Assembly: GCA_963849735.1 (NCBI GenBank) | Contig: CAWKJE010000003.1 | Location: forward strand, 67,595 to 131,594 | DNA length: 64,000 bases | Direction of reading: 5' to 3' | Source: an uncultured delta proteobacterium | Lineage (GTDB): Bacteria > Myxococcota_A > Polyangia > Fen-1088 | Shown here: in pieces, positions 8,264 through 37,495 of the stretch | Layout: each line of letters opens with the position of its first letter | How positions within the stretch are numbered: the first letter of the stretch is position 1 | The notes under the pieces: model-generated | The model's database searches: none | What the model was told of the DNA's origin: nothing | Seen by the model: only the letters and a program-made list of their open reading frames with translations | Made by a program: the position numbers and the translations under genes

Positions 8264-8369
8264 TGCCCACAGCGCTGTTGAACTTTAAGGGGTAGCGGCG
8301 GCTCCCTGACCGGCCCGAAGATAGGGCTTGTTCAGGACCAACAGTCCCCGAGGGGACAAGGAGCCGCCG

Positions 8370-12600: not shown

Positions 12601-15600
12601 TCAATCCACGCCCGGCCCCGAGGGGCCAGGCGACGGCGCCGGCGCAGACCGAGGCGCCTGCTCCCAAGTTTCAATCCACGCCCGGCCCCGAGGGGCCAGG
12701 CGACGTCGTGGAACCCGAGCCACTTGTCGACCAGGTGATCGTTTCAATCCACGCCCGGCCCCGAGGGGCCAGGCGACCTCACCGATCCGTCTCTTGGCCA
12801 TCACAATATGTTTCAATCCACGCCCGGCCCCGAGGGGCCAGGCGACAGGCGCGCGAGGGACAGGCGCTGGCGGTTATCGAGTTTCAATCCACGCCCGGCC
12901 CCGAGGGGCCAGGCGACACGGGCCACATGACATATCGCTCTGGCAACAATACGTTTCAATCCACGCCCGGCCCCGAGGGGCCAGGCGACACCGAAGGCTT
13001 TGCGCTGCACCGCCAGATGCCGGGTTTCAATCCACGCCCGGCCCCGAGGGGCCAGGCGACCTGCGCCTGGGTCCATTCGTCCGGTTCGGCACGTAGTTTC
13101 AATCCACGCCCGGCCCCGAGGGGCCAGGCGACCTGCGCCTGGGTCCATTCGTCCGGTTCGGCACGTAGTTTCAATCCACGCCCGGCCCCGAGGGGCCAGG
13201 CGACAGAGACGAGCATCGCAGGCATTGCAGCTCTTAGTTTCAATCCACGCCCGGCCCCGAGGGGCCAGGCGACACGCCGCGTGGGCTGAAGTTCTTGCGG
13301 GAGCTGGTTTCAATCCACGCCCGGCCCCGAGGGGCCAGGCGACGGGCGAAGGCCACACCATTACGTACGCGAAAGGAGTTTCAATCCACGCCCGGCCCCG
13401 AGGGGCCAGGCGACGTATCTGCCAGGAGAGTGCACCGAGGATTGCTTCTAGTTTCAATCCACGCCCGGCCCCGAGGGGCCAGGCGACTGGCTCCGATGCC
13501 AATACGGGAGTCAACTATTTGTTTCAATCCACGCCCGGCCCCGAGGGGCCAGGCGACTCAAGTCGCGCAACCCGGCGCGCGCCGAGCTTGAGTTTCAATC
13601 CACGCCCGGCCCCGAGGGGCCAGGCGACGCGGACAATCGGCCATGACCCGCCGCAAGCGCCAGTTTCAATCCACGCCCGGCCCCGAGGGGCCAGGCGACG
13701 GTAATGGGCCGCCACGTCGTTCCCGTCTGCTGGGTTTCAATCCACGCCCGGCCCCGAGGGGCCAGGCGACCCGGTCACCAGTTGACTGCCAATGCCCCAG
13801 CGGCGGTTTCAATCCACGCCCGGCCCCGAGGGGCCAGGCGACCCGCGGCCCAGCCTCCTCTCCGCAGCGGAGCCAGGTGTTTCAATCCACGCCCGGCCCC
13901 GAGGGGCCAGGCGACCTTTCAATGGCGGCGGATTCGGTAGCGCCGAGAGGTTTCAATCCACGCCCGGCCCCGAGGGGCCAGGCGACACCATTAGGTCGTC
14001 GCCCTTGAAGCCGCAGAAGCGTTTCAATCCACGCCCGGCCCCGAGGGGCCAGGCGACCTTGTGCCGCCCGTCTCCCCTACGTCGGGCAAGTCGTTTCAAT
14101 CCACGCCCGGCCCCGAGGGGCCAGGCGACTTTGCGCGCCCGGTTCACGATCATCATCCATTGCTGTTTCAATCCACGCCCGGCCCCGAGGGGCCAGGCGA
14201 CCGGGCGCATCTTGGTGGGGCGCCCAGTACACGTAGTTTCAATCCACGCCCGGCCCCGAGGGGCCAGGCGACTGTACTTGTACGTCACGGCGGGCGCGTG
14301 CCGAGTGTTTCAATCCACGCCCGGCCCCGAGGGGCCAGGCGACGTGCGCCCGTCGGCAAACTTGGGCTGGCTCACGCCGTTTCAATCCACGCCCGGCCCC
14401 GAGGGGCCAGGCGACCCTGGCCGGCGATCTGCTCCGCCGTGCTGCCATCGGAGTTTCAATCCACGCCCGGCCCCGAGGGGCCAGGCGACGTGGGCAAGCT
14501 GGGCGGTGTGTCAGTACACGGACGGGTTTCAATCCACGCCCGGCCCCGAGGGGCCAGGCGACCGCCGGGGACGGTGCCCTACTGGCCGCCGCAAGCGTTT
14601 CAATCCACGCCCGGCCCCGAGGGGCCAGGCGACTTGAGCGGCACGAGGCCCCCCGACCAGAGCGCCGCGTTTCAATCCACGCCCGGCCCCGAGGGGCCAG
14701 GCGACCGGCGAAGAATGCGTCGCGGCGGTTGAGGCACAAGTTTCAATCCACGCCCGGCCCCGAGGGGCCAGGCGACCGTGAGCGAGCTTGGGCCGGCGCA
14801 GCCCATCGAGTTTCAATCCACGCCCGGCCCCGAGGGGCCAGGCGACGCGCGAACGCCCTCGTCATGGCAGACGATGGCGTGTTTCAATCCACGCCCGGCC
14901 CCGAGGGGCCAGGCGACCGTAGCCTGTCGCCGGGTTGCGCAGCTTCGCGCGGTTTCAATCCACGCCCGGCCCCGAGGGGCCAGGCGACGGCGAAGGGAGT
15001 TCTAGGCATCTGGATTTCTTTGTTTCAATCCACGCCCGGCCCCGAGGGGCCAGGCGACGTCTCCCGAGGCATTGAGGCCGCTAGGCTGATTGTCGTTTCA
15101 ATCCACGCCCGGCCCCGAGGGGCCAGGCGACTGCGGCGGGCGTCATGTGGGTATTCACTGCGATGTTTCAATCCACGCCCGGCCCCGAGGGGCCAGGCGA
15201 CAAGAAAGGGCTTGTCAATAGGTCATTTTGCCCCAGTTTCAATCCACGCCCGGCCCCGAGGGGCCAGGCGACACCCTGACCGTGGGGACCGCGCCGCAGA
15301 CCATCTCGTTTCAATCCACGCCCGGCCCCGAGGGGCCAGGCGACATCGACCAGTAGCGAGGCGGCAGCAGGCGCTTACGTTTCAATCCACGCCCGGCCCC
15401 GAGGGGCCAGGCGACGAGCACGGCGAAGCCTTGCGGCTATGGCACAACAAGTTTCAATCCACGCCCGGCCCCGAGGGGCCAGGCGACTCTCAAGCGTTTC
15501 ACGGACTGGACTGGCAACGAGTTTCAATCCACGCCCGGCCCCGAGGGGCCAGGCGACAGACGGCCGAGCATGCTGATTGGCCAGTCAACGAGTTTCAATC

Positions 15601-18600
15601 CACGCCCGGCCCCGAGGGGCCAGGCGACACCGCGCGCTGGGGGCGAAGCTGTGACCCGCCGTGTTTCAATCCACGCCCGGCCCCGAGGGGCCAGGCGACA
15701 AGACTGTGCCCTGCTTCCCCTTGGCGATCTTATTGTTTCAATCCACGCCCGGCCCCGAGGGGCCAGGCGACTGGGTCCTTGCCGAACACGATAGGGCCGA
15801 GGGTGTTTCAATCCACGCCCGGCCCCGAGGGGCCAGGCGACTCGGCGACAGGTTGAACCAAGCGGTCAACGACCTGTTTCAATCCACGCCCGGCCCCGAG
15901 GGGCCAGGCGACCAGCGCAGCCCATGTTCATCCTCGAACGGCAGATGTTTCAATCCACGCCCGGCCCCGAGGGGCCAGGCGACGAATGGACCGCGACGGG
16001 GCTCGCCTTGGTGACGGGTTTCAATCCACGCCCGGCCCCGAGGGGCCAGGCGACAAGATCGCGGCGGCCGTCTTGCCGTCGATCACCAGGTTTCAATCCA
16101 CGCCCGGCCCCGAGGGGCCAGGCGACACCCGCGGGTGCCTGCTGCCCGGACACACCCGAGGCGTTTCAATCCACGCCCGGCCCCGAGGGGCCAGGCGACT
16201 CAGCTGCGTCGACTTGGAGCCCGTGAAGCTGGCGTTTCAATCCACGCCCGGCCCCGAGGGGCCAGGCGACCAAGCAGGTGGCTTGGGCAGCCAAGCTGCG
16301 CATTGGTTTCAATCCACGCCCGGCCCCGAGGGGCCAGGCGACAGAGACGGCCTGGACTGGTACGTAGAGGTAGGCGGGTTTCAATCCACGCCCGGCCCCG
16401 AGGGGCCAGGCGACCTACAGGGGAGGTTAGGCGTGCTCTGTCGCAGCTGTTTCAATCCACGCCCGGCCCCGAGGGGCCAGGCGACCAGACGACCAGATCA
16501 TTTTTCTTGACAAAGAACGTTTCAATCCACGCCCGGCCCCGAGGGGCCAGGCGACGATCACTTGACTGGCCTACCGGACTTGGTGGAGGAGTTTCAATCC
16601 ACGCCCGGCCCCGAGGGGCCAGGCGACCGGCAGCATGCGCACGTTTGAGTACAAGATGCTGTTTCAATCCACGCCCGGCCCCGAGGGGCCAGGCGACATG
16701 GAATCCGCTTGAGCAGGAAACCAAGCTTGAGTTTCAATCCACGCCCGGCCCCGAGGGGCCAGGCGACAAAAACAGCTTGAGGTTGATCGCGCACTGGTCG
16801 GTTTCAATCCACGCCCGGCCCCGAGGGGCCAGGCGACCCCGCACATCGCCAAGCTAGCCCGCGTGCCCGAGATGTTTCAATCCACGCCCGGCCCCGAGGG
16901 GCCAGGCGACCCAAGTGCCGAGGTTTGAGGCTGCATGATGACCATGTTTCAATCCACGCCCGGCCCCGAGGGGCCAGGCGACCAGGTATGCGGCACAGCT
17001 ACGCTCTATGTAGACAGGTTTCAATCCACGCCCGGCCCCGAGGGGCCAGGCGACCTACCGCTGGATGTGTGCTACTCGTGGCAGTGACGTTTCAATCCAC
17101 GCCCGGCCCCGAGGGGCCAGGCGACAGCTCTGCACGCGATTGTCCGCCGCGTACCAGGAGTTTCAATCCACGCCCGGCCCCGAGGGGCCAGGCGACCTCA
17201 CGCGCGCTAGCGCTACCCTGTAGGCATGTGGTTTCAATCCACGCCCGGCCCCGAGGGGCCAGGCGACCTTTGTGCCGGAGGAGGTGTAACATGAGTACCG
17301 CTGTTTCAATCCACGCCCGGCCCCGAGGGGCCAGGCGACCTGCAGGTTCGTGTCAGGCGCCGCCAGGTGCTTGGCGTTTCAATCCACGCCCGGCCCCGAG
17401 GGGCCAGGCGACAAGTGCGACGAGCAGGTTCAGCGCATCGCCGAGATGTTTCAATCCACGCCCGGCCCCGAGGGGCCAGGCGACCGGCTGACGGACGAGC
17501 AGCTGACCGCCATAGCGGAGTTTCAATCCACGCCCGGCCCCGAGGGGCCAGGCGACCGCAACGATCGCGCTCTCCTGGCCGCGCAGCATGCTGTTTCAAT
17601 CCACGCCCGGCCCCGAGGGGCCAGGCGACCCGCTACCCGGTCGAGGTCTTGTGCGGGGCATGGTTTCAATCCACGCCCGGCCCCGAGGGGCCAGGCGACC
17701 CGCGGGGCAGGGAGGCAAGCCTTGATCAAGCACCTGTTTCAATCCACGCCCGGCCCCGAGGGGCCAGGCGACCATGGTTGAGCGATTCCAGGGCCACGCT
17801 GTCCTGTTTCAATCCACGCCCGGCCCCGAGGGGCCAGGCGACTCAGCTCGCGTCGCCAGTCGCCACGATGACTCTTGTTTCAATCCACGCCCGGCCCCGA
17901 GGGGCCAGGCGACCTCCAGCCGTTCCAGGCGCGTGCGCACGGCCGAGTTTCAATCCACGCCCGGCCCCGAGGGGCCAGGCGACACGAAGAAGGGTCGAGG
18001 GCATGGAAAAGACGATGTTTCAATCCACGCCCGGCCCCGAGGGGCCAGGCGACGCGTCGGCCAGGGGTACGAGTTGCCGCCAAAGTAGTTTCAATCCACG
18101 CCCGGCCCCGAGGGGCCAGGCGACCGCGTCCGGGTGGACGGCGGTCACCAAGGTGATGTTTCAATCCACGCCCGGCCCCGAGGGGCCAGGCGACCGGGCT
18201 GAGCACATGGGACTGCAGGTCGGCCAGGTTTCAATCCACGCCCGGCCCCGAGGGGCCAGGCGACGTTTCTCACCACGAGCGACGGTCAACGCATCGAGTT
18301 TCAATCCACGCCCGGCCCCGAGGGGCCAGGCGACTGGCGCGCAGAACAGCGCCAGATGAGCCAGAACGTTTCAATCCACGCCCGGCCCCGAGGGGCCAGG
18401 CGACAAGGCCCCCTCCGAAGAGCGGCACAACTCATCAAGTTTCAATCCACGCCCGGCCCCGAGGGGCCAGGCGACGGCCTGGTGGATTCAATGCTCGCCC
18501 GCCGACATGTTTCAATCCACGCCCGGCCCCGAGGGGCCAGGCGACAAGAGTCGGCCGAGCACGAGGGCAAGGACGCCGAGTTTCAATCCACGCCCGGCCC

Positions 18601-18901
18601 CGAGGGGCCAGGCGACCTGCAAGGGCGGCAGGATGTCCTCGGCGACGTCCTGTTTCAATCCACGCCCGGCCCCGAGGGGCCAGGCGACCAAGACGCGCAT
18701 CTCGGTAACGTTGGCCACGGTGTTTCAATCCACGCCCGGCCCCGAGGGGCCAGGCGACCTGAGGATCTCCTCCCAAAGCAGCGATGAGCTGAGTTTCAAT
18801 CCACGCCCGGCCCCGAGGGGCCAGGCGACAAGCCGCGCCCGAGCATTGCAACGGCGCCGAGAAGGTTTCAATCCACGCCCGGCCCCGAGGGGCCAGGCGA
18901 C
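9670..18901 (-). CRISPR. Type I-C CRISPR array, 130 repeats and 129 spacers; repeat (plus strand) GTTTCAATCCACGCCCGGCCCCGAGGGGCCAGGCGAC
   Basis: 130 copies of a 37-bp repeat with 71-72 bp period and spacers of 32-37 bp. Minus-strand repeat GTCGCCTGGCCCCTCGGGGCCGGGCGTGGATTGAAAC ends in the type I-C 'ATTGAAAC' signature. Same strand as the adjacent cas genes. Confidence 0.98.
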
Positions 18902-19084
18902 GCACCCGCTAAGAATATGGCAGATTTCGCCCACCTACTGGGGCTTCGGCGCGAAGGGTGCAAGTCTCGCGCAGTTGCGCCGCTGTGGCTGGCGGCGCCA
19001 TGGTCGTACTCTTCGAATTTCAGAGAGCAAGTAGCAAGGCGCGAACGGTCACGGACTTTCATGTCCAATCCACCTTCGCGCTGC
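18902..19084 (-). promoter_or_regulatory. CRISPR leader (between cas2 stop and first repeat)
   Basis: 183-bp non-coding, lower-GC segment lying between cas2 and the repeat at 18865-18901, on the transcribed (minus) strand upstream of the array. Confidence 0.6.
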
Positions 19085-19375
19085 CTAGATGATAAGGGGG
19101 GTATCGAAATCGACGCTCGGCTTGGTTCCGTGATGCTCGGCGCGGCCCAGGTCGTCGGACCCCAGAAAATAGAAACGAAGGCTGTCTTCATCCGGGTCGA
19201 AAAGGCGAAGCAGCTTGCCGCGGAGCTCCACCCAAAGGGCATCCGGCAGGCTGCATTCGAAAACCGAGAATTGCACCCGCTGTCCGCAGCTTTCGCATGC
19301 CTTGGCAATACGCCGCAAGCGACGTCGACCCTCTTTGCTTTCCGTCGAGACGTCATAGGTGACCAGGACGACCAT
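19085..19375 (-). CDS. cas2: CRISPR-associated endoribonuclease Cas2
   Basis: 96 aa beginning 'MVVLVTYDVSTE...', the canonical Cas2 N-terminus. Located immediately next to the array. Confidence 0.9.
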   Translation of the reverse strand: MVVLVTYDVSTESKEGRRRLRRIAKACESCGQRVQFSVFECSLPDALWVELRGKLLRLFDPDEDSLRFYFLGSDDLGRAEHHGTKPSVDFDTPLII

Positions 19376-19384
19376 GAAGATACC

Positions 19385-20410
19385 TCAGCCGGCCGGATGA
19401 AAGGGTGGAAAACTCTCAAGATCACGGCGAAGGGTTCGCGCAAGCAGCCTCGCTTCGACATGCGGGACCAGGCCCCAGGTGATTTCGTCCCCAAGCAACG
19501 GGTGCACGATGGTTGTGGCCTTCCTCTCCTGATGGGCCTTGATGACCAGCTTCCGGGCGTCGTCGGTCAGCTCGACGGCGCCGCTCTCGGTCTTTCGGAA
19601 GTCACCGGGGCGAAGCTGCTGGTTGTTTATCAAGGTGAGCACCAGGCGATCGGCCACCAAGGGCCGCAGGTGTTCCATCAGATCGAGAGCCAACGCTGGT
19701 CGTCCAGCCCGGAACGCGTGCAGAAAGCCAAAAGCCGGATCGAGTCCGTTTCCCTGCAGTGCCGACAGGCAGTCGTTCATCAGCAGCGCGTAGGCAAAAG
19801 ACAGCAGACAGTTTATCGGGTCGCGCGGCGGCCGGCGCTGGCGCGATGTCCATCGGAAGTCATCCCCCTGCTGTCGGACCATATCGCCAAATACCTCGAA
19901 GTACCGAGCCGCGGCTTCGCCTTCGCAGCCTCGCACCTGATCGTGCGTTTCCATTCGAATAAGGTCGCCCATGCGCAGCGAACGGGCGGCGTCGCTCAGG
20001 CGAACGGCCGTATCCCCTTCCGACTCCCTAGCAGCCCGCTGCAGGATGTGGCGTTGGTTTGCAATCTTGCCCTGGACGATGCACTTCGCGATGGCCAGGC
20101 TGCGGCCGGCATCGAGGTGGCATTGCATCTGGTTCAGCCGCAAGAGGGCGCCGTTCTCGCTTGTTCCCTCAACTCGCCCGCGGAACCGTCCCTGCTCCGA
20201 AAGGAAGGCGATGCCGACACCGCGCTCCAGGCACAGGGACATCAGCTCGGGGCTCACGTAGGTGTGCCCCATGCATACGATGGACTCCAGGTGGTGCAGG
20301 GGAACTCGTAGCTTCTGTTCGCGATTGACCCGTACGGAAACTGTCTCACCCTCCTTGAAAAGCGCGGCCTCGGCCGCAGTCACGTATAACGTATTCTGGA
20401 GAACCGCCAT
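19385..20410 (-). CDS. cas1: CRISPR-associated integrase Cas1
   Basis: 342 aa from ATG at 20410 ('MAVLQNTLYV...'). The longer ORF to 20677 has an implausible Arg/Gly-rich N-terminus. Lies between cas4 and cas2. Confidence 0.85.
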   Translation of the reverse strand: MAVLQNTLYVTAAEAALFKEGETVSVRVNREQKLRVPLHHLESIVCMGHTYVSPELMSLCLERGVGIAFLSEQGRFRGRVEGTSENGALLRLNQMQCHLDAGRSLAIAKCIVQGKIANQRHILQRAARESEGDTAVRLSDAARSLRMGDLIRMETHDQVRGCEGEAAARYFEVFGDMVRQQGDDFRWTSRQRRPPRDPINCLLSFAYALLMNDCLSALQGNGLDPAFGFLHAFRAGRPALALDLMEHLRPLVADRLVLTLINNQQLRPGDFRKTESGAVELTDDARKLVIKAHQERKATTIVHPLLGDEITWGLVPHVEARLLARTLRRDLESFPPFHPAG

Positions 20411-20412
20411 GA

Positions 20413-21036
20413 TCAGAGCTCCCGCATGTAGGCCGCCAAGTGCCCGCGCGACGGCAGCGAAGGCATACACTGGCCTCGCAAGCTGCACCGCCCACACTTT
20501 GGGCCAGGCTCGGGCTCGGGTGTTCGGCCAGATTGCAGCATGGAAGCGATCGCCGCCACTACTGCCTCTGTGTCCTTGCGAAGTGGCTCGTCGAACGTGA
20601 CTTCCCGCCTGCGGCGGGAAGCCCCGAAATACAGCGCCCCGATCGGAACGGGAACCGCTAGCATCTCCTCCAGACACAGACCTTGGGCGCAGAGCTGCAG
20701 CTCTGCATGCCTGAAGGTGTTGCGCACGCTCCGTTTGTATTCGACGGGGAATGGTTTGCCAGGCGGCGGGTACGCCGGATCGGAATAGAAGACAACCATG
20801 TCCGCCCGCCCGGACAGAGCCAGGTGATCACTCTTCAGCGCAAGCGCCCGCGCCTTCTTCATGCCTGGTCGCTGTTCCAGCCCGGGGAGGTCCACCTGCT
20901 CGTGCATCACCTTGCCCTGAGCGGTGAGCACGTTCTCCGCCCAGAGCCCCTCAAGATGGATCAGCCCACACTGGCGCCTACAAAAGCTCCAGTGCTCGAT
21001 CGCCGAGATCGCGACGAGGCGTTCGTCGTCGTCCAC
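20413..21036 (-). CDS. cas4: CRISPR-associated exonuclease Cas4 (RecB-like, Fe-S cysteines)
   Basis: 207 aa with N-terminal Cys plus C-terminal 'CGRCSLRGQC' cluster. Stop overlaps cas1 start. Confidence 0.8.
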   Translation of the reverse strand: MDDDERLVAISAIEHWSFCRRQCGLIHLEGLWAENVLTAQGKVMHEQVDLPGLEQRPGMKKARALALKSDHLALSGRADMVVFYSDPAYPPPGKPFPVEYKRSVRNTFRHAELQLCAQGLCLEEMLAVPVPIGALYFGASRRRREVTFDEPLRKDTEAVVAAIASMLQSGRTPEPEPGPKCGRCSLRGQCMPSLPSRGHLAAYMREL

Positions 21037-21074: not shown

Positions 21075-21944
21075 TTAGAAGCCGTTGATCTCTTCCGGTT
21101 TGAGCCTGTCCAGTGGCGTTAGATCATAGCTGCCATCAGCCTTCACTGTCAGCGAGCGGTGGACCTTTGCCGACGAGTACTGCCCTGACTTGCAGTTGTG
21201 TTCCCACCAGAAGACCTTTGCCACTTCCATGCTGCCTTCTGGCCGAGCAGAGGAAGCGTCATTCTCGAATAGCTTGGGGAGGATAGATTTGATAGTGGCC
21301 GCATCGGCGTCAGAGAAGCCGGTGCGTTCAGCGAGTTGCGGGTTCATCGAGCCAAACGTGACATACACGCCGTTGTCCACCCGATGCTTCATCCCCATGG
21401 TGTCGGAGGATCGCTTGCCGCCATCACCCTCTCCACTCACGCTCTTCGTAATCTGCGTGCTGGTCACACTAACTGGCTCGATGCTGAAGGCCGATTGGAT
21501 CGACACAGGTCCGCGAATGCCGATCGAGACGCTGCCGTCGCCCTCGTCGCTCCCCTTTCCCTTCTTTTCACCCGCATATGGGAAGAGCTGGCCAAAGGCG
21601 CGGACGTCAAACCATGTGCTGCATGCAATCTCGACGATCCTGGCTTTCGCCTTTTCCTGACCCATCGTGGCCTCGTACCGCTTTCTCAAGCTTGGGGCAT
21701 CGTCTAGCTTGCGATCATCCGACTGGACGAAGACCGCCTGCCCATTTTGCGGGTCGCCAGATAGGGATGCATAGCGTTCCACGAGCCTGTCGCGGATCTT
21801 GCGTTTCAGGCAAACGTCGGTGATTTCTCCTAGGCCGGAATAGTCGGTCCGCGGACGATTCCCGTTCAGTGGGTCGCCGTTGGGGTTGGCGTTGCGGACG
21901 CGCAGGATCAGGGCAAAATCGACTTTCTTGGTAAGGCTCGGCAT
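21075..21944 (-). CDS. cas7: Cas7c/Csd2 (type I-C Cascade backbone)
   Basis: 'ALILRVRNANPNGDP' Csd2 signature. ATG at 21944 with AGGAGA RBS. Confidence 0.88.
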   Translation of the reverse strand: MPSLTKKVDFALILRVRNANPNGDPLNGNRPRTDYSGLGEITDVCLKRKIRDRLVERYASLSGDPQNGQAVFVQSDDRKLDDAPSLRKRYEATMGQEKAKARIVEIACSTWFDVRAFGQLFPYAGEKKGKGSDEGDGSVSIGIRGPVSIQSAFSIEPVSVTSTQITKSVSGEGDGGKRSSDTMGMKHRVDNGVYVTFGSMNPQLAERTGFSDADAATIKSILPKLFENDASSARPEGSMEVAKVFWWEHNCKSGQYSSAKVHRSLTVKADGSYDLTPLDRLKPEEINGF

Positions 21945-21961: not shown

Positions 21962-23941
21962 TCAATCAGCAGTGGCAGTGGCGCTCGAATCTGCGTCGTC
22001 TGTTTCGACGTGCCGTAGGGCTTGGCGCTGACAGTGATACGCCAGCAGAAACTCGCCCGAGAGTGGATGGTCGTTGCTAAAGGCGTCCTTCTCGTTGGCT
22101 GACGAGAAGTGGCCGAGTACCTCGTCCAGCAGCTCTTCCATGGTCCACAGGAAGGGACTCCGTGACACCCGGAGGCGGCTTTTGTACGGTCCCAGCGAGA
22201 GTTCGATAGTTCGCCAGGTGGTGTACGGGTGATCGGCAAATCGTTGAAATAGGCGCGCCGCGGTTGTGTCCCGGCTTTCCCGGGCAACATAGAGTGCGCG
22301 GCTTTCCAGGTGTTCGGCGATCGCCAGAAGGCGGCCATAAAGGTAATCACGGGTCTTTCGGTCTTCTTCGAGAGCCATCGAGTATCCCCTTTCCTTGTGA
22401 AATCCTTTGAACAGCGCGCAGGCGATGCCTAAGCACTTCTCCCATTCCCATTCTTCACCCTTGGGTCTTGAACGGGCGAAGGTTCGATGTGTGCAACTTG
22501 TCACCAAGTCATAGGGAATGGCGCACTCATCGATGAGGCAAGGAAGAAGCCTCTCAAGCGTGGCCTTACGAAGCTTCTCGTTCTCTTCAGCTCGCGGACC
22601 GTAGGCGGCGTGCACGATGTCGCGAAGTGAAGGCGCACCGACAAATCTGCGATCCCGTCCCATGTCTTGGTGCCACGCCAAGTCGACGTGCCAGGCCTGT
22701 ATGCGTGCCAGAAAATCCGAGGCGCGCAGTTCCCGGTAGTAGACGATGGCGATACCGCCCTTCTTGGGTAACGCCGAGTCAAGGCCGAGCACCATAACGC
22801 CATCACCGTCATCCAAGTTCGCCTGATAGCCAGCAAGCGTGCGCCGCAGACGTTGGGCGAACTCGTACCCCACGTCTCCTGCCTGGCTTGTCGAATCTAT
22901 GCTGTCCAGCTGGTGAGCGGACAAGTCGCTTTCGCCGGTGAGCAATTTCAAGGTGTCTGCCCATGGATCGGGAATCTTGTGCCCGGCGGGCGACCAAGCG
23001 ACGAATACTTGATCTCCTTCCCGAACGAATGCCTGCCTGCGCTCGATCAACCAGCGGAGAGCATAGTGCGCCTTCTGGGAGACATCGTAGGCTACGCCAA
23101 ACGCTTGTGCCGCGTCCTGGAATCTGCCTCGATAGGTAAATCCAGCCTTGTCATTGGCTGAGATGAGCTTGGCGTTGTCGCCCGCGTGACGGATTTTCTT
23201 GGGATGTTGCTTGGCCAGGGGAGCTGTACGCCCGGTGACTTGGCAAACGTCGCCGGTGGCCTGTCGGCTTGCATAGAACTTCTGCCAGGCGAGGATGAGC
23301 GCCGGATCTTCCCAAGTACCGGTACACAATTCCCTTCGGGACTCAATGCGCCAACGGATGAATGCATCGGTCGGCGATTGGCCGTTGCCGAGGGCCTGGA
23401 AGATCGCGGGGGCGGTTCCGCGATCACGCGGCCACTCCTTGACGACCTCCGGGACACCGCTAGGAGCCCCGTCGGTTACGGGCAGAACTCCAGACGTAAC
23501 TAGGTCCGCTACGACCTTGCCGCGTTGGACATATGCCAGCACTGCATCGAGCTTGACCAGACCCGTTGAGAACCTGGCCCATTTCTGCAGGAGGCCCAAA
23601 TAGTCGTCATGAGGCGCGCCAGGGGTATTGGCGAATCCGGACGTAACTTCACCGCCGTAGTCCCGGAAGTCCTTGGCAACATACTGGAGATTGTCGCAGA
23701 GAGGATGACTCGACGGCATCGTGCCCGAGCGCCCGCCAGATTCCTCAGTGCATGGGACCAGTGTTTGTTGTTGGTCTTTCGGTATGAGCAACGCTCGGCG
23801 GAATTCCCCCTTCTCATCGATGACTATTTCGATATGCGCCTGTTGGGTCGTATGCGCGATGGGCAGCAGGGCCTTTGCATCGGGAAGGTCGGAACCGGCA
23901 CAGCGCTCGTAGGTATCATAGAGCTTTTGCATCCAGGACAT
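21962..23941 (-). CDS. cas8c: Cas8c/Csd1 (type I-C large subunit)
   Basis: ~659 aa between cas5 and cas7. ATG at 23941 ('MSWMQKLYDTYERCAG...'). Confidence 0.8.
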   Translation of the reverse strand: MSWMQKLYDTYERCAGSDLPDAKALLPIAHTTQQAHIEIVIDEKGEFRRALLIPKDQQQTLVPCTEESGGRSGTMPSSHPLCDNLQYVAKDFRDYGGEVTSGFANTPGAPHDDYLGLLQKWARFSTGLVKLDAVLAYVQRGKVVADLVTSGVLPVTDGAPSGVPEVVKEWPRDRGTAPAIFQALGNGQSPTDAFIRWRIESRRELCTGTWEDPALILAWQKFYASRQATGDVCQVTGRTAPLAKQHPKKIRHAGDNAKLISANDKAGFTYRGRFQDAAQAFGVAYDVSQKAHYALRWLIERRQAFVREGDQVFVAWSPAGHKIPDPWADTLKLLTGESDLSAHQLDSIDSTSQAGDVGYEFAQRLRRTLAGYQANLDDGDGVMVLGLDSALPKKGGIAIVYYRELRASDFLARIQAWHVDLAWHQDMGRDRRFVGAPSLRDIVHAAYGPRAEENEKLRKATLERLLPCLIDECAIPYDLVTSCTHRTFARSRPKGEEWEWEKCLGIACALFKGFHKERGYSMALEEDRKTRDYLYGRLLAIAEHLESRALYVARESRDTTAARLFQRFADHPYTTWRTIELSLGPYKSRLRVSRSPFLWTMEELLDEVLGHFSSANEKDAFSNDHPLSGEFLLAYHCQRQALRHVETDDADSSATATAD

Positions 23942-23942
23942 G

Positions 23943-24665
23943 TTAGGCCCCCCATTCGTTGGCTTCGGTCTCCACGGGCCTGACGTTCTTGCCGAGGCCA
24001 AAGCGCTTGGCCGTCATATCGCGGACGACTTTTCGGATGGCGCACTCCTCGGGGCGAGGGAATCGCAGGACGCCGTCGACCAGCTTCGGCATCCAGAAGC
24101 GGGCTTGTAGTCTGTTGTCACCAGTCTCGTCTGGATAGTCGAAACCATGGAACATCAACCCGAAGCCAAGCTCGCCAGCATCGTCAAGCTCCCCTGTGCC
24201 TGAGCCGAATTCGCTGGGTTCGACGTATCCCTGGCAATCGCGCGTGCCTAGGAAGATGTCCTGTCTGCCGCCGCGTTCGAGCATGCGTTGGGCGATCGCG
24301 AAATGCTTCCCGTCGACTCGGTCCTTGGCCAGATCCGGCTGGGCTTTGTTCCAGACGAAATGAGCCTGGACCTGATACTCGACGTTGGCGAGGAACGTGT
24401 AGATCGCCAGGGCGTTGCCGCCACCATATTTGAGAGGCTTTGTTCCCTTCGTCTGCGTACGAACCCGCTTCATCACCCGCACTTGGTCGATCACCCAGAT
24501 GAGCGTAGGCTTCCAGTAGATCGACTTGGCGATGCCCTTCAACGCCTCGTAGGTTGGAATGTGGTACGAGCACTTCTCGCCACCGATCTTGGTCAATGGA
24601 TCGGTGAAGAGCGCGTAGCGTCCCCAGGTCTTGAATTCAAGCGTGTTTTTGGATTTGCTCGACAT
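23943..24665 (-). CDS. cas5: Cas5c/Cas5d (type I-C, pre-crRNA processing subunit)
   Basis: 240 aa beginning 'MSSKSKNTLEFKTWGRYALFTDP'. Position in the operon is cas3-cas5-cas8c-cas7. Confidence 0.85.
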   Translation of the reverse strand: MSSKSKNTLEFKTWGRYALFTDPLTKIGGEKCSYHIPTYEALKGIAKSIYWKPTLIWVIDQVRVMKRVRTQTKGTKPLKYGGGNALAIYTFLANVEYQVQAHFVWNKAQPDLAKDRVDGKHFAIAQRMLERGGRQDIFLGTRDCQGYVEPSEFGSGTGELDDAGELGFGLMFHGFDYPDETGDNRLQARFWMPKLVDGVLRFPRPEECAIRKVVRDMTAKRFGLGKNVRPVETEANEWGA

Positions 24666-27129
24666 AGAGAAATTCCCCCGGTGACACGGGCTCGGTGGAG
24701 AGCCCGAAGTCCCTGCTGTAGTAGCTTTCGTTTAGGTGGAAGATTTCTGTCCCTGGCTGGACCTCGAAAATCGCCTGTGCGTCTCTGAGCCTGTCAAACT
24801 CGTGGCTAAAGATGTTTACCGTGAATTGCTGTGCTGCACGCAGCAACCGGAATTCCTTGTCGACATCCGTCGCGGCGCACAGCTCCCCGATGAGCCGCCT
24901 ACCCTCCCCATAAGGTACGACAACGCCTTTCGTTGGCGCATCAATGGCTTGGAAGGTGTCGTTCGCGGTCTTGAAGGATTGCCGAAAGTAGTTGACCTTG
25001 CCTTGCCTGAATCCGGTTATGAGCGAGTTTGTAGACAACATGTCCAACAGGTCGTCGCCGCGACCTGCCTTGCCGGGGTTGATCGGATATCCCATCTCGT
25101 CCTTGCGGGCGAAGAAGTAGTTCTCGTAGAACCACGCCATGGCCTTGGGAGAAAGCAGGTCGTTGTCAAAGCGCTCCGGATCGTCCCGGAAGTCGTCGAG
25201 CACTCGCGCTGCCTTCTCGCGAGCGATGTCGATGTCCCGGATTGACGACAGCGATTCCTCGGTCGGGTTGACCACGTGCACGATTCCCGTTGGATTCCTT
25301 CCACTTCGGTTGCAGCGGCCCGCGGCTTGAGCGATCGAGTCCAACCCCGCGGCAAACCGAATCACGCACCCGAAATCGAGGTCAACGCCGGCCTCGATAA
25401 GCTGGGTGCTGATGCAGAGAATGGGTTCGTGATCGAGGAGCTGTTGCCGAATTTGCGTGAGGGACGACTTGCGATGGGCGGGACACATGCATGTGCTGAG
25501 GTGATGGACCGGTAGGCCATGCCCCGAGGCTGTCTTGAACAAGGCCTTTGCCGCCTTCCTAGTGTTCACGACGACCAGACAGCTTCCGCTGCGAGCGACT
25601 TCGGCCCTGGCCAAGTCCGCGATGTCGCCGTCATGCCAGCCGCCGGGCCGGCGAGCATCCTTCACCTCAACCCGCCGAAGTCTCGAGAAGGTGTTCTGGA
25701 CATCTGGGACGATTTCGCTTCCGGAGGCAATTTTCGCTGCCCCCTTCTTGGCGTCTACCTGGCCCAGCAGCGGTTGGGTCGCGGTGCAAAGGACGACAGT
25801 GCTCCCACCTTGCGCCGCAAGAAGGTTGATGGCGTTGTTGAAAAGGTGAATGCACTTGACTGGGAGGCCCTGGATTTCGTCGAAGACGATCAGCGCCCGA
25901 GCAAGTTGATGCATTCGTCGGACTCCTCGGGTCCCCCCGCCAAGAATGGCTTCGAGAAACTGCACGCTGGTTGTGTAGACCACGGGCGCATCCCAGTTCT
26001 CCGACAGGAGCTTGTTCTTCCAGCCTTGCTGCGGCGGTCCCAGGTTCGAGTGATGTTCTAGCACGACCTTGCCGTGGTCTTCGGGACAAGAAGCAGGTTC
26101 AAGAATGCGACGGGCAACATCGGCGTTTTGGTCGATGATGGTGGTGAATGGCACCACGTAGATCACGCGATGCAAGCCATGGGCACGGGCGTGGTGAAGG
26201 GCGAAACGAAGGCTGGCGAGGGTCTTTCCGCCGCCAGTGGGGACGGTAAGGGTGAAGATGCCGCGTGGTCGGGACGCGGCTTGTCGGCAGTGCTCGGAAA
26301 TGTCCCGACGAACTGCGTCGATGGGATGCTGGGGCTCGAGTTTGGTAAGATGGTCTTCGAGTCGGTTTGCGAGGACATCCCAGGACGTGAACTCTCCATG
26401 CTGACGTTCTTGCGCAGCATGGCGACGCTCAAAGTCGGCGGTGTCTTCTCGATCGGCGTCGATCAAGCAGCTGAATAGCATACGAACCAGCAATCCAAGT
26501 TGGAACTGAGCAACCTGGTTCCTGTCTGACCTGTCCGGGGATCCCAGGGCGATGTCATGGAGGTGTTTCGTGAAAGACGTGACGAGCGATTCGTCCTGCA
26601 ACAGTGCTGCTGCCCTTGCCCGAATTTTCGGGTCGAGTTTGCCGAGGGCTTCATCAAGGTGAGTTCGTGCTTCGCCCTTGAGCATCCTCCGGCTGAAGTC
26701 ATCGCGTGGTCCCTCGACCGGATCCGCCACCAAGCAGTCAATGAGCCCCGAATGATGGGATGCGATGCAAAGGGCCAATGCTTGGCCAACGATGGGCCCC
26801 AAAGGACCGGCCTTGCTTAGCGCGTTCCATACGAACTTGGCACCTGCTGTCGAATGGTCGACCTTACCTCTCTGCGCGGCTGGCAGATCGTCATCAGCGT
26901 CAGGATCCTCCTTGCCTGTCCTGCTTCGCAGGTAGTTCTGAAATGCATCGCTGTGTTTTCCGAGGTCATGGAAGAGCCCGATCAGCTCGCCGGCTGGGCC
27001 AAGGCCTATCTTTCCGGCAGACTGAGCGCATCGCCTGGCCGTTCCCTCAAGGTGATCAGACAGGAGCTGTTCCGCGTCGTCAGAATCGCGAACGTGGGCG
27101 ATTGGAAGGCCCATGGCCGTTTTGCTCAT
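24637..27129 (-). CDS. cas3: Cas3 HD-nuclease/helicase
   Basis: HD motif 'LFHDLGKHSDAFQ'. SF2 helicase motifs ('TVPTGGGKT', 'VFDEIQ'). ATG at 27129. Confidence 0.88.
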   Translation of the reverse strand: MSKTAMGLPIAHVRDSDDAEQLLSDHLEGTARRCAQSAGKIGLGPAGELIGLFHDLGKHSDAFQNYLRSRTGKEDPDADDDLPAAQRGKVDHSTAGAKFVWNALSKAGPLGPIVGQALALCIASHHSGLIDCLVADPVEGPRDDFSRRMLKGEARTHLDEALGKLDPKIRARAAALLQDESLVTSFTKHLHDIALGSPDRSDRNQVAQFQLGLLVRMLFSCLIDADREDTADFERRHAAQERQHGEFTSWDVLANRLEDHLTKLEPQHPIDAVRRDISEHCRQAASRPRGIFTLTVPTGGGKTLASLRFALHHARAHGLHRVIYVVPFTTIIDQNADVARRILEPASCPEDHGKVVLEHHSNLGPPQQGWKNKLLSENWDAPVVYTTSVQFLEAILGGGTRGVRRMHQLARALIVFDEIQGLPVKCIHLFNNAINLLAAQGGSTVVLCTATQPLLGQVDAKKGAAKIASGSEIVPDVQNTFSRLRRVEVKDARRPGGWHDGDIADLARAEVARSGSCLVVVNTRKAAKALFKTASGHGLPVHHLSTCMCPAHRKSSLTQIRQQLLDHEPILCISTQLIEAGVDLDFGCVIRFAAGLDSIAQAAGRCNRSGRNPTGIVHVVNPTEESLSSIRDIDIAREKAARVLDDFRDDPERFDNDLLSPKAMAWFYENYFFARKDEMGYPINPGKAGRGDDLLDMLSTNSLITGFRQGKVNYFRQSFKTANDTFQAIDAPTKGVVVPYGEGRRLIGELCAATDVDKEFRLLRAAQQFTVNIFSHEFDRLRDAQAIFEVQPGTEIFHLNESYYSRDFGLSTEPVSPGEFLYVEQIQKHA

Positions 27130-27139
27130 CGCGCTCACC

Positions 27140-28153
27140 CTACGCCAGCCCTTTGTCACTACTGGTCCAAGATTCCTCGCTGCGGTCTCGGTAGCGCTCG
27201 GCGGCATCGCGCAACTTGCGTGCCACGCTCTGGACTAGCGCATTGGGCGCCAGCACTTTCGCGGCCGGACCATAGCCGAGTATCCACCGCTCCACTTCGG
27301 CCAATCCTGCTACCTCGCCGCTCACCACCACGCCGCCGCTGCTCTTTTCGAGCTGCTGGCCCGCAAGCCATGTGCGCTCGCCAATCTCCTCGGCCACCTC
27401 AGGCGAGAACCAGATGCGGATCTTCTCCAGGTGCTCGCTTCGCCACACGCGAAAGGCGTTGCGCAGGGCAGAGCGCGAGCGGGTTTCGGGGCGTGGCGCG
27501 CAGTGTTCGTCGGTCACGACCGCGGCTACGAATCGGTGGGCGGCGAAGACGCGTACGTCTGCGCGCAGGCGGCACCAACCAATGAGGTAAAGGGTTTCGA
27601 GGCCCGGATCCCAGTACAGCTCGCCGGGTTCGATGATCCGGCTTGACACCTGGCCGCTGGAGATGGCGCGGTAGCGGGCGTTGACGGCCAGCCTGGCGCG
27701 GGTGGCGCGCTCCAGGGTGGTGATTATGGAACGGCGCGCGGCGTGGTCGATTCCAGTCAGATCACGGGTGGTGATCCAGGGCGCCGATTCGATCGGGACC
27801 AGGGCGGTTTGACCATCGCCGGTGGAGCTTACCCGGTGCCAAAGTCGGTCGAGGGCTTTGCCCAGCGAGGTTTCCTTCCAACCACGTGAATTCTGCCTGG
27901 CAAGGAACAATGCTAGGCGCTCGTCGGCATCGGGCAGGCCGGCGCTCGTGCGGGGATTACCCAATATGCGATAGCGTTGGTTGGCGTGTTCAACGATATA
28001 GCCGGCATCCGTTAGGGCCTTGATGTCCCTATATAGCCCGCGCAAGTTCCAGTCGTGCCGCTCAGCCAAGGTCTTGAGAGCAACGCCTGCGCGCGAAGCG
28101 CAAAGAGCCTGCTTAAGAGCCTCCACCCGAACTATCCTATCGTTGCGTGGCAT
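27140..28153 (-). CDS. WYL-domain transcriptional regulator (HTH-WYL-WCX), first gene of the cas operon
   Basis: N-terminal HTH ('IVRVEALKQALCASRAGVALKTLAERHDWNLRGLYRDIKAL'). Central 'LYLIGWC' WYL-type region. ATG at 28153. Stop lies 10 nt from the cas3 start. Confidence 0.7.
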   Translation of the reverse strand: MPRNDRIVRVEALKQALCASRAGVALKTLAERHDWNLRGLYRDIKALTDAGYIVEHANQRYRILGNPRTSAGLPDADERLALFLARQNSRGWKETSLGKALDRLWHRVSSTGDGQTALVPIESAPWITTRDLTGIDHAARRSIITTLERATRARLAVNARYRAISSGQVSSRIIEPGELYWDPGLETLYLIGWCRLRADVRVFAAHRFVAAVVTDEHCAPRPETRSRSALRNAFRVWRSEHLEKIRIWFSPEVAEEIGERTWLAGQQLEKSSGGVVVSGEVAGLAEVERWILGYGPAAKVLAPNALVQSVARKLRDAAERYRDRSEESWTSSDKGLA

Positions 28154-28671
28154 CTCCAGATTCGTCGGCCTGCCGCCAGCAAGGCACGAGGATACACCCG
28201 CGGGCGGTGTTCTGCGTTGCGATCTGTGGCAGTTGCCCCAGAAGAGCATCTTGCGCGTCGCTTGGGCCGACTGGAGCCGCTACTCAAGTTGCAATGACCA
28301 CCGCCGGGACCGCGCTTTAGGAAGAGGGCAGATGGTCGTTGCGAGTGAGATATTTTACCACCTCCCACGCGCGCTGAGCGCAGGGATAAGGTAAATGGTG
28401 ACATCGCACCCGTTGTGGCGGCGCAGCGGCTGGTGCAGGCGACTTGGCTCTTTGGTGATGGCGTGTGCGGGGTATGCGCACCGAGAGCGAAGGCCGCGCT
28501 GCGCCCGCGGGATCCTCCGGCTCCACTGTTCCGAGGCCCAAGGCATGCGATGTAAGTCTGCGATCTTGCTAACTCGATCTGGTACCGACCGAGTGGTTCC
28601 CATGGCCAGGGGGTGGCATCTCCCATGGAGACTCCAACGGATTCGGCGCGGCATTACTCACGGCCCACGCA

Positions 28672-29187
28672 GTGCGCAGATGCCCGCCCGGGCGGCAACG
28701 CCTCCGCGCACGTCGCCCGAGGGGGCCTTCGCGCTTGCGGCCAGCCCATCGCGGATATATTGCCCTGGCGGGTGACCGGGAGAGGGCGGACGAGCCGCTC
28801 GATCGGGCGGGGGACACCAGGAAGAATACGGCTGCGCAGGTCACAACGTTTTCGCAGACTGCGGGCGAGCAGTTGAACCTGCAGCCAACGCACCGGTTCA
28901 ATCGCTCCCACGCTATCGCTGTAGCGGTCGGAGTGATTCTGATTGGGGGTGGCGTGCTCGTTCTCAGGCCTCATGGTGTACAGCAGCCGGTGACGTCCCG
29001 GGCGGCAACGGCAGCTAGTGTAACGGCAATCGCGCCGTTATCGCCTTCGCCTATGGGGGTGGCTCAGCCGGCGCCGCCCCGGAGCGTCAAATCGGCGGCG
29101 AAGCCAACTGAGCCGGCCGCGGAGGCTGCCGCCAAGCGAAAGGCACCCAAGAAGCACCCTAAACGCTTTCTAATCCAGGAGCTGTGA
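28672..29187 (+). CDS. small membrane protein; start uncertain (possibly TTG at 28873)
   Basis: Transmembrane segment 'AIAVAVGVILIGGGVLVL' followed by an Ala/Pro-rich tail. Stop overlaps the GTG of the next gene (GTGA). Confidence 0.3.
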   Translation: MRRCPPGRQRLRARRPRGPSRLRPAHRGYIALAGDRERADEPLDRAGDTRKNTAAQVTTFSQTAGEQLNLQPTHRFNRSHAIAVAVGVILIGGGVLVLRPHGVQQPVTSRAATAASVTAIAPLSPSPMGVAQPAPPRSVKSAAKPTEPAAEAAAKRKAPKKHPKRFLIQEL

Positions 29188-36316: not shown

Positions 36317-37495
36317 ATGGTGCGACAAGACGAACCCCGGGGACGGGTCCATGGACCGTACCCCTATCGGCGACAGTGGCGAGTCGTCGTGGTCCATGAG
36401 GATGGCCAACGAGATCATCGCTACTTCGCGACGCAAGAGGACGCAAAACAGGTAGCTCGATCATTGCGGCGGATGTTGGGAAAAGCTGCCGCCAAACTAC
36501 TCACGAAGGCGTTGGAGGAATACGAAGTGTTCGCGCGCGATGACCTCGGCAACAAGCCGACGTCGACGAAAACGACGGCGGCTCGGTTGACCCAGTTCTT
36601 CCTGGGCTACGACGGTAGCCTGGAAGATCTGGACGAGGCCGAGTGTGCCCGAAGGTACGAGACGCTCCGCAACCACACCACGGTTCATGGCAAACGCATC
36701 GCGGACACCACGCAACTGAACACCTTGGCCCAGGTAAAGACGTTCCTTGACTGGTGCGTGAAGAAGGGCTGGGCGAAATCCAACCCGGCGGCGAGCGTGG
36801 AAGGCAAGGGGAGGTATCGACACGGTAAGCCACAGCTTCGTGTCAATGAGGCTAGGCGGTGGCTGGCGACAGCGGCGAAGATCGCTCGAGAGGCGGAAAC
36901 GACAGGGAAGAAGGAGGGTGCTCTAAAGGCGATCCTCACGTTGTTGTTGGGCCTGCGGGAGTCAGAGGTCTTGAACCGACAGGTTCGGGACGTTGACGAT
37001 GGCGGGCGTTTGCTGTGGATCCCCGACACGAAGACGGAGGCTGGGAGGCGGACGCTGGAGGTGCCCGAGGAGATCGTTCCTCTTCTGCTTCGGCAAGCCG
37101 GGAACCGGCCCGGGATGGAACCGCTCTTTGCTCATCGAACGCGTGGCATCGCTCGCAAGTGGGTCCAGCGAATCTGCCGGCGTGCGGGCGTCATGGTGGT
37201 GGGGGCGCAATCGATGCGGGGCCTGCACGCCACGCTTGCCGTGAAGGCTGGCATCACCAGCCACGCGGTGGCGTCGGCGCTGGGCCACACGTCGTTCTCC
37301 ACGACAGCGAGGAGCTACGCCAAGCCGGAGGCGGTGGAGGGGGCCAAGCAGCAACGGGCGATGGCGGTGCTCAGCTCGCCAGCGCCCGCGAACGAGAACG
37401 CCGCCGAGCACCCAGACGACGAGAAGTTGCACAACTTTCTGCACAACTTTTCGCCATTTTCAGCGAACGCGTCAAAGGGTCGATCGGACAACTAG
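36317..37495 (+). CDS. int: tyrosine-type site-specific recombinase/phage integrase
   Basis: AP2-like arm-binding N-terminus ('GPYPYRRQWRVVVVHEDGQRDHRYFATQEDAKQ'). Catalytic region 'GLRESEV', 'HATLAVKAGITSHAVASALGHTSFSTTARSYAKPE' (R..HxxR..Y). AAGGAGG RBS. Ends 21 nt from the tRNA 3' end. Confidence 0.85.
   Translation: MVRQDEPRGRVHGPYPYRRQWRVVVVHEDGQRDHRYFATQEDAKQVARSLRRMLGKAAAKLLTKALEEYEVFARDDLGNKPTSTKTTAARLTQFFLGYDGSLEDLDEAECARRYETLRNHTTVHGKRIADTTQLNTLAQVKTFLDWCVKKGWAKSNPAASVEGKGRYRHGKPQLRVNEARRWLATAAKIAREAETTGKKEGALKAILTLLLGLRESEVLNRQVRDVDDGGRLLWIPDTKTEAGRRTLEVPEEIVPLLLRQAGNRPGMEPLFAHRTRGIARKWVQRICRRAGVMVVGAQSMRGLHATLAVKAGITSHAVASALGHTSFSTTARSYAKPEAVEGAKQQRAMAVLSSPAPANENAAEHPDDEKLHNFLHNFSPFSANASKGRSDN

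Follow-up and report, generated by a model that had tools for sequence, protein, structure and literature searches.

The window analyzed here, a 64,000-nucleotide (nt) stretch of contig CAWKJE010000003.1 from an uncultured delta proteobacterium of the Myxococcota_A, carries a complete type I-C CRISPR-Cas system, the NCBIfam models for cas8c, cas5c, cas7c, and cas1c all scoring above their cut-offs. At the head of its operon lies a gene for a WYL-domain regulator (positions 27140 to 28153, minus strand; 337 amino acids [aa]). In at least 27 of 33 relatives, a member of the same family stands first in a type I-C, I-E, or I-G cas operon, which makes a regulatory link to the cas genes well founded. 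The interpretation that we consider probable, if with some reserve, is an autoregulated induction of the type I-C operon by this regulator, triggered by single-stranded DNA (ssDNA). It draws on a conserved ligand site in the modeled protein, the operon-head position of the gene, and a conserved sequence element close to its promoter.

The WYL regulator and its linkage to type I cas operons

The regulator gene ends with a TAG stop codon at 27142 to 27140, followed by ggtgagcgcg and then by the cas3 ATG at 27129, leaving a 10-nt gap; cas3 could alternatively start from the in-frame GTG at 27138. The longest open reading frame (ORF) ending at 27140 begins at 28249, but the start was placed at ATG 28153 because the N terminus, M[AP]RND[RQ]IVR, is conserved across 34 aligned homologues. 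With its 328 aa, a public gene call misses nine residues. Together with the NCBIfam and Pfam assignments of the downstream genes and their tight packing, these data bear out the preliminary description of this DNA, in which the regulator had been read as the first gene of a cas3-cas5-cas8c-cas7-cas4-cas1-cas2 operon, co-directional with cas3 and 10 nt before it. The gene has a guanine-plus-cytosine (GC) content of 0.639 (0.66 to 0.68 in its 3′ half), compared with 0.595 in the cas operon and a mean of 0.645 for the window; the step at the regulator-cas3 boundary is compatible with a different origin of the cas cassette and the regulator.

The earlier identification of the product as a winged helix-turn-helix (wHTH)-WYL protein likewise stood, and the WYL fold was recovered on structure prediction. 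Pfam recognized both WYL (PF13280; 43.1 bits, cut-off 21.8; 4e-11) and the C-terminal dimerization domain WCX (PF25583; 62.2 bits, cut-off 23.9; 6e-17; residues 243 to 318), with HTH_11 and HTH_20 below their cut-offs (18.6 and 19.7 bits). From the alignment of the family, AlphaFold2 gave a model (mean predicted local distance difference test [pLDDT] score, 76) in which residues 1 to 63 are predicted to form a wHTH domain (helices 3 to 19, 26 to 33, and 37 to 49 plus a two-strand wing at 54 to 63; pLDDT, 84 to 88), followed by a helical linker, a five-stranded WYL barrel of Sm-like SH3 beta-barrel type (155 to 217), and WCX (242 to 322). The top Foldseek matches of this model in the PDB were WYL regulators only: DriD (1e-15), PafBC (2e-14), BrxR (1.5e-7), the Cas13d accessory protein WYL1 (1.7e-7), and CapW (1.6e-6), with DriD, PafBC, BrxR, and CapW at probability 1.00. 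A family profile run against PDB sequences retrieved DriD (4e-16), PafBC (1.4e-14), and CapW (1.7e-3), BrxR being absent from the matches; the alignment to full-length DriD begins at residue 3 of the window regulator. The CAS-associated WYL models of PADLOC, PDLC01457 (4.3e-26) and PDLC01652 (5.1e-26), also matched, while the PADLOC BrxR/CapW models did not. As judged from these profiles and models, wHTH, WYL, and WCX domains are all present, and the protein is genuinely of the wHTH-WYL-WCX transcription factor type.

In characterized members of the superfamily, binding of ssDNA at the WYL domain allosterically changes the engagement of the promoter by the wHTH domain (DriD, PMC9186387, PMC10853764, and PMC13004042; PafBC, PMC11804915; CapW, PMC11662680; BrxR, PMC9122601). 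The outcome is activation in DriD and PafBC and release of repression in CapW and BrxR (PMC9186387, PMC11804915, PMC11662680, PMC9122601). The ssDNA contacts of DriD are Y168, R176, R178, Y192, and R204 and also Y240 and R288 (Gozzi 2022; PMC9186387). As read by hand from HMMER profile alignments rather than by structural superposition, Y161, R172, Y189, R201, and W237 of the window regulator align with DriD Y168, R178, Y192, R204, and Y240 and are invariant in 34 family members; equivalents of R176 and R288 are not conserved, so that five of the seven positions would be kept. An alignment to PafC yielded the same register for the ligand residues.

To follow the genomic context of the family, 113 related loci were gathered from genomes and metagenomes, and linkage was counted in the 33 nonredundant relatives that were 44% or more identical and whose sequence extended far enough downstream. 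The next ORF was Cas3-like (helicase or HD domains) in 16 relatives and GSU0053, of type I-G, in four; in seven more, a short intervening ORF was followed by cas3 within 0.5 to 2.9 kb. Type I-C loci were found in the window, L031, L035, and L036, type I-E loci in L003, L058, and L059, and type I-G loci in L004, L037, L008, L032, and many others, the three subtypes being interspersed on a regulator tree of 33 leaves. Matches with 23 to 30% identity (L009 to L030 and L092 to L113; mostly from Verrucomicrobia) belong to other WYL families, with no cas genes downstream, and were left out.

One clear pair is formed by L003 and L004, two related metagenome-assembled genomes from one sample. Their flanks are 93% identical and their WYL genes (5957 to 6967 in both) 96.6% identical in DNA sequence, yet downstream of the regulator L003 has a DEDDh exonuclease gene and a type I-E operon and L004 a type I-G operon. 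The homology between the two regulators starts exactly at a −10-like motif and stops about 40 nt before the stop codon.

Some further features of the related loci deserve mention. In L003 (7016 to 7588; type I-E) and L072 (593 to 1159; probably type I-E), a gene for a DEDDh exonuclease of the RNase_T family is placed between WYL and cas3, and its product matches the PADLOC CAS-associated DEDDh model (1.8e-26). In L032, the type I-G genes that follow the WYL homologue (9054 to 15388) are broken up into many short calls (GSU0053, and GSU0054 twice), suggesting sequencing-error frameshifts or a decaying locus. Directly upstream of the regulator, on the opposite strand, L032 (7605 to 7898) and L033 (7054 to 7864) carry a nucleotidyltransferase gene, that of L033 belonging to a HepT-MNT toxin-antitoxin pair.

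The gene adjoins cas3 in most loci, and its product could alternatively be a protein-level accessory of Cas3, the WYL domain binding ssDNA and loading, stimulating, or restraining the nuclease-helicase, with transcriptional control secondary or absent. The WYL domain of PIF1 helicase and WYL1 with Cas13d work in a comparable way. Residues 8 to 321 of the window regulator match positions 8 to 316 of the 1,009-position PADLOC Cas3c model, i.e., its N-terminal third, which indicates that natural WYL-Cas3 fusions exist. Such fusions have been described in some type I systems, in the same study that predicted WYL proteins to be CRISPR-Cas regulators (Makarova 2014; PMC4012209). Moreover, the cas3 frame of the window is open to 27207, 78 nt before its ATG, and so runs, in a different frame, into the 3′ part of the WYL gene. 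We nevertheless regard a Cas3 accessory as unlikely. A complete, confidently modeled wHTH domain is kept, its N-terminal residues are invariant in the family, and all close structural matches are transcription factors. The C-terminal end and the stop codon are conserved whatever cas subtype comes next, and in several type I-G loci it is GSU0053 and not cas3 that adjoins the regulator; the constant feature is therefore the head of the operon, not cas3.

A single frameshift between 27129 and 27207 would yield a WYL-Cas3 fusion like that in the PADLOC Cas3c model. The possibility that the two genes are separate only through a frameshift artifact in a fused gene was rejected: relatives with other cas subtypes keep both the stop codon and the C-terminal WTSSDKGLA, and this conservation argues for a native split.

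The promoter-proximal element and the proposed induction

The 300 nt before the conserved start codon were aligned for 43 loci. A promoter-like element common to distant relatives emerged, represented in the window by CGGGTGTATCCTCG (28187 to 28200, minus strand), with a −10-like hexamer, TATCCT, at 28189 to 28194 and 35 nt between this hexamer and the start codon; in the relatives the hexamer is TATCAT. Each of the loci of the window, L004, L033/L034, L037, and L039/L040/L079 has a single copy of the motif GGGTGTAYYMT, at a fixed distance from the start; all have CGGGTGTAYCATSGC in common 35 to 45 nt before the start. In L003, this position is taken by the variant AGGTGTATCAT. The flanks of the loci sharing the element are otherwise unrelated. 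In other clades, a TACAAT-like or TACACT-like box stands 16 nt away from the start and is preceded by TTCC, 21 to 23 nt farther upstream; this combination was found in 8 of the 43 loci, against 0.29 expected from shuffles. No canonical −35 hexamer was recognizable at the element, and a generic sigma-70 scan, which misses the element because no −35 is present, made no call there. The 14-mer occurs once in the 64-kb window. An apparent 21-nt "insertion" in the window promoter relative to L003, seen in a MAFFT alignment, was discarded because the similarity of its flanks (10/21) is too weak.

On these grounds, the preferred interpretation can be put as follows. The regulator would act as a homodimer-type wHTH-WYL-WCX transcription factor, expressed from a putative promoter of its own, some 40 nt before the start codon, and presumably cotranscribed with cas3-cas5-cas8c-cas7-cas4-cas1-cas2. 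Its WYL domain may bind ssDNA, the likely ligand by analogy with the characterized members, arising from phage or plasmid replication, from DNA damage, or from unwinding and degradation by Cas3. Binding would alter the engagement by the wHTH domain of the promoter, its supposed binding site, and thereby raise expression of both the regulator and the whole cas operon. The circuit would be autoregulated.

As to the sign of the regulation, we slightly favor induction by derepression, in the manner of CapW, BrxR, and Sll7009, over direct activation in the manner of DriD and PafBC. Those defense-linked WYL regulators that have been characterized repress transcription and let go of DNA once ssDNA is bound (PMC11662680), and Sll7009 of Synechocystis, a negative regulator of the type I-D CRISPR1 locus, is the only WYL regulator of a type I locus to have been tested by experiment (cited in PMC4012209). 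The defense context would point to derepression, as would the L003/L004 pair: the two loci share DNA only from the −10 element onward, and a common operator would for this reason lie at or downstream of the −10. The sequence similarity to DriD and PafBC and the missing −35, on the other hand, speak for activation.

A number of observations weigh against the proposed induction. A missing −35 fits an activator-dependent promoter as well as a weak or extended −10 promoter. No conserved palindrome that might serve as an operator was found around the −10 in the aligned relatives. A search for inverted repeats, suggested when the DNA was first described, did detect two, but neither is conserved: ACACC-N7-GGTGT, the only one at the promoter (seen by eye), is specific to the window and not present in relatives, and TTTACC/GGTAAA (28354 to 28395) is split by 92 nt in L114, the contig of a near-identical strain. 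Nor did an operator emerge that the promoter would have in common with the CRISPR leader or with other parts of the window, matches to the 14-mer with up to three mismatches being at chance level. To these must be added the hand-read character of the ligand-residue mapping and the fact that the closest characterized relatives, DriD and PafBC, control dispersed DNA damage regulons and not a neighboring operon.

This last point leads to a different explanation, namely that the protein is a general, ssDNA-activated DNA damage regulator of the DriD/PafBC type with its main targets elsewhere, the cas operon being at most one member of its regulon. DriD and PafBC are indeed the best sequence and structure matches, and a −35 is missing from the promoter, as it is from those that depend on DriD. 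Such a general role nevertheless seems distinctly improbable to us: the operon-head position is kept with three subtypes and in many unrelated flanks, L003 and L004 keep the regulator while the cassette differs, and the promoter element is single copy in the window.

The ssDNA-induction proposal can be extended in two directions, the combination of which we put forward as an unlikely but specific conjecture. The ligand could be the ssDNA made by Cas3 during interference or primed adaptation, so that the first attack on an invader would raise the expression of Cascade, Cas3, and the adaptation module Cas1-Cas2-Cas4. At the same time, regulator and promoter could form a portable 5′ cap for recombining type I-C, I-E, and I-G cassettes, as suggested by the nearly identical regulators of L003 and L004 at the same chromosomal site in front of different subtypes.

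The upstream interval and the surrounding locus

The preliminary description had placed the control of the operon in a dedicated, lower-GC region of about 700 bp upstream of the regulator, with the operon promoter and a WYL operator in AT-rich patches such as 28345 to 28420. Some features would fit this layout: the interval contains no convincing gene, and the patch has the lowest local GC (0.566, the 7th percentile of 76-nt windows) and includes a TAAAAT hexamer and a 13-nt imperfect inverted repeat (I22). We consider such an extended control region very improbable, however. The GC content is 0.651 for 28154 to 28734 and 0.654 for 28154 to 28870, close to the window mean (53rd percentile) and above that of the cas operon, so that the region is not low in GC. 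In other relatives, only about 100 to 140 bp separate the regulator from the preceding gene; L114 aside, no similarity to other family loci extends past about 50 nt from the start, and the only conserved upstream element is the one at 28187 to 28200. A promoter scan found nothing in the patch. Finally, in comparison with L114, the window lacks 1.57 kb distally and 92 nt between the arms of the repeat in the patch. Given the short upstream DNA of the relatives and these two losses, the long interval is, by sequence comparison, the remains of a larger decaying intergenic region and not a conserved control module.

The history of the interval could be read from L114, a contig 93 to 97% identical to the window. 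By blastn, L114 positions 2 to 545 correspond to window positions 29311 to 28768 and L114 2116 to 2519 to window 28778 to 28380, leaving L114 546 to 2115 (1.57 kb) absent from the window, with the junction of the deletion at 28768 to 28778; window 28154 to 28767 is homologous to L114 2116 to 2841. With this DNA, a divergent Ser/Thr kinase gene lost the part for its kinase domain; also gone is the gene for a 94-aa XRE-type HTH protein (HTH_31, 5.5e-8), which is co-directional with the WYL gene. The further 92 nt missing from the window lay between two CCTGC repeats, inside the 28345-to-28420 patch. In L114, the kinase ORF (126 to 1625) encodes a Pkinase domain (4e-47) and a C-terminal tail that corresponds to window ORF 28672 to 29187 (plus strand), which we therefore take as the 3′ remnant of a Ser/Thr protein kinase gene (a transmembrane segment plus an Ala/Pro-rich tail); this ORF has no Pfam match and a near-zero coding score. 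The corresponding stretch of L114 between the XRE and WYL genes (1962 to 2841, about 880 nt) contained no convincing gene or Pfam match.

The view that the interval from 28154 to 28870 holds no convincing ORF was thus correct for its main part, although the limit of 28870 was too far because the DNA from about 28768 is kinase gene remnant. By a codon log-odds score trained on eight confident genes, the nine ORFs of at least 60 aa in 28154 to 28734 scored between −0.15 and −0.005 bits per codon, whereas the cas and WYL genes reached +0.21 to +0.27. The stretch from 28154 to 28767 accordingly has no coding-like ORF and average GC. No Rfam family matched the upstream region, predicted RNA structure there was not significant (z = −1.7 and −1.1), and the sequence of the interval is not repeated elsewhere.

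Three other candidates in the interval were examined and rejected. A 164-aa ORF (28132 to 28626) proposed by public gene callers has a codon score of −0.147 per codon, its sole homologue among 1.84 billion representative proteins is an 88-aa call in the near-identical strain L114, and in L114 it is disrupted by frame-breaking indels of 1, 1, 92, and 4 nt, while substitutions show no preference for a codon position. On the plus strand, co-linear tblastx matches to L041, L052, and L049 (46% ungapped identity versus a 28% background) hinted at a second, decayed WYL gene (28571 to 28752). It was ruled out: the stronger match was out of frame with the WYL gene of those loci, the signal was not significant after multiple testing, and a six-frame search with the family hidden Markov model found nothing. 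For a CRISPR-repeat-like element (CreR type or mini-array) upstream of the operon, the best match was 21/37, equal to that of shuffled sequence.

The cas operon follows the regulator on the minus strand. It comprises cas3 (24637 to 27129; 830 aa, HD nuclease plus helicase; Pfam Cas3_HD, DEAD, and Cas3-like_C_2), with NCBIfam cas3_HD above its cut-off (1e-28) and cas3_core below (86.9 versus 102.45); cas5c (23943 to 24665; TIGR01876, 237 bits, cut-off 85); the type I-C signature gene cas8c (csd1; 21962 to 23941; TIGR01863, 384 bits, cut-off 219) and cas7c (csd2; 21075 to 21944; TIGR02589, 301 bits, cut-off 182), both with starts according to the public gene call; cas4 (20413 to 21036; TIGR00372, 115 bits, cut-off 65); cas1c (19385 to 20410; TIGR03640, 438 bits, cut-off 385, at residues 93 to 426 of a long ORF); and cas2 (19085 to 19375; Pfam CRISPR_Cas2, 1.4e-22). 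The genes are co-directional with gaps of at most about 38 nt, the packed order leaving no room for a cas6, which is missing, and terminator-like sites are not enriched in the operon. A leader of about 185 nt (about 18902 to 19084) separates cas2 from the CRISPR array (9670 to 18901, minus strand), which has 130 identical 37-nt repeats (GTCGCCTGGCCCCTCGGGGCCGGGCGTGGATTGAAAC as transcribed) with an end, ATTGAAAC, that we take to be typical of type I-C. The array is very long, contains 129 spacers, with a spacing of 69 to 74 nt, and has no degenerate terminal repeat. A Mutator-family (IS256-type) transposase ORF (8328 to 9665, plus strand; Pfam, 7.6e-27) stops only a few bases short of the leader-distal repeat; an insertion sequence may have cut the array short.

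Past the array, four ORFs on the minus strand (2184 to 7395), i.e., those for a SNF2-type helicase, a PLD-like protein, and a DUF6361 protein plus a fourth ORF, gave weak to moderate PADLOC matches to ZacA, ZacB, ZacC, and DrmD; the CRISPR locus therefore seems to lie within a defense island. On the other side, about 8 kb from the WYL gene, a phage integrase family ORF (36317 to 37495, plus strand; Pfam, 1.6e-11) may mark a mobile element or the border of an island.

Comparison with known systems

The association of WYL and cas genes is already known from annotation profiles and from a published survey of myxobacteria (PMC11237760), and for this reason the observation in the window is itself ordinary. 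Our additions are modest: the exact operon-head position, the promoter-proximal element, the DriD/PafBC-type ligand residues, the cassette difference between L003 and L004, and the deletion history upstream. How type I CRISPR-Cas systems sense when they are needed is poorly understood, however, and this regulator family is abundant in soil and wetland Myxococcota. With its DriD-type contacts and operon-head position, it would offer a convenient model for asking whether ssDNA, from Cas3 action or phage replication, induces CRISPR immunity.

With respect to the CRISPR-associated WYL proteins captured by the CRISPRCasTyper and PADLOC models, there is no essential difference, as these show the same wHTH-WYL(-WCX) architecture beside cas genes. 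The 2024 mSystems survey found that myxobacterial WYL proteins accompany different CRISPR-Cas subtypes and yet cluster together (PMC11237760), and this cross-subtype clustering was reproduced here for types I-C, I-E, and I-G. In WYL-Cas3 fusions, the same wHTH-WYL-WCX module is N-terminal to Cas3, whereas in the window the two are separate genes in different frames, 10 nt apart. Sll7009, so far as it can be compared from its description, is likewise a WYL regulator of a type I locus, but of type I-D and from another phylum.

CapW and BrxR have the same architecture as the window regulator and are encoded beside, or first in, the immune operon that they control; for 21 of the 210 associated systems, BrxR homologues have already been reported next to CRISPR-Cas (PMC9122601). 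The similarity is nevertheless much weaker, limited to the profile match for CapW and to the fold for BrxR, with no PADLOC match for either, and we accordingly place the window regulator in a different branch of the superfamily.

The nearest counterparts are the ssDNA-activated activators DriD of Caulobacter crescentus and PafBC of mycobacteria. They differ from the window regulator in several respects: identity is only about 20%, they govern dispersed regulons and do not head a defense operon, and PafBC is a fused heterodimer while the window protein is encoded as a single copy. The binding site of DriD is a 7-N7-7 palindrome that overlaps the −35 position; nothing similar is conserved at the window promoter, and the window family has no conserved site upstream of the −10, where L003 and L004 share nothing. 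Both proteins nonetheless have the same domain order as the window regulator and are its best matches in sequence and structure, and the likeness to DriD extends to the five probable ssDNA contacts and to a promoter with a −10 but no recognizable −35.

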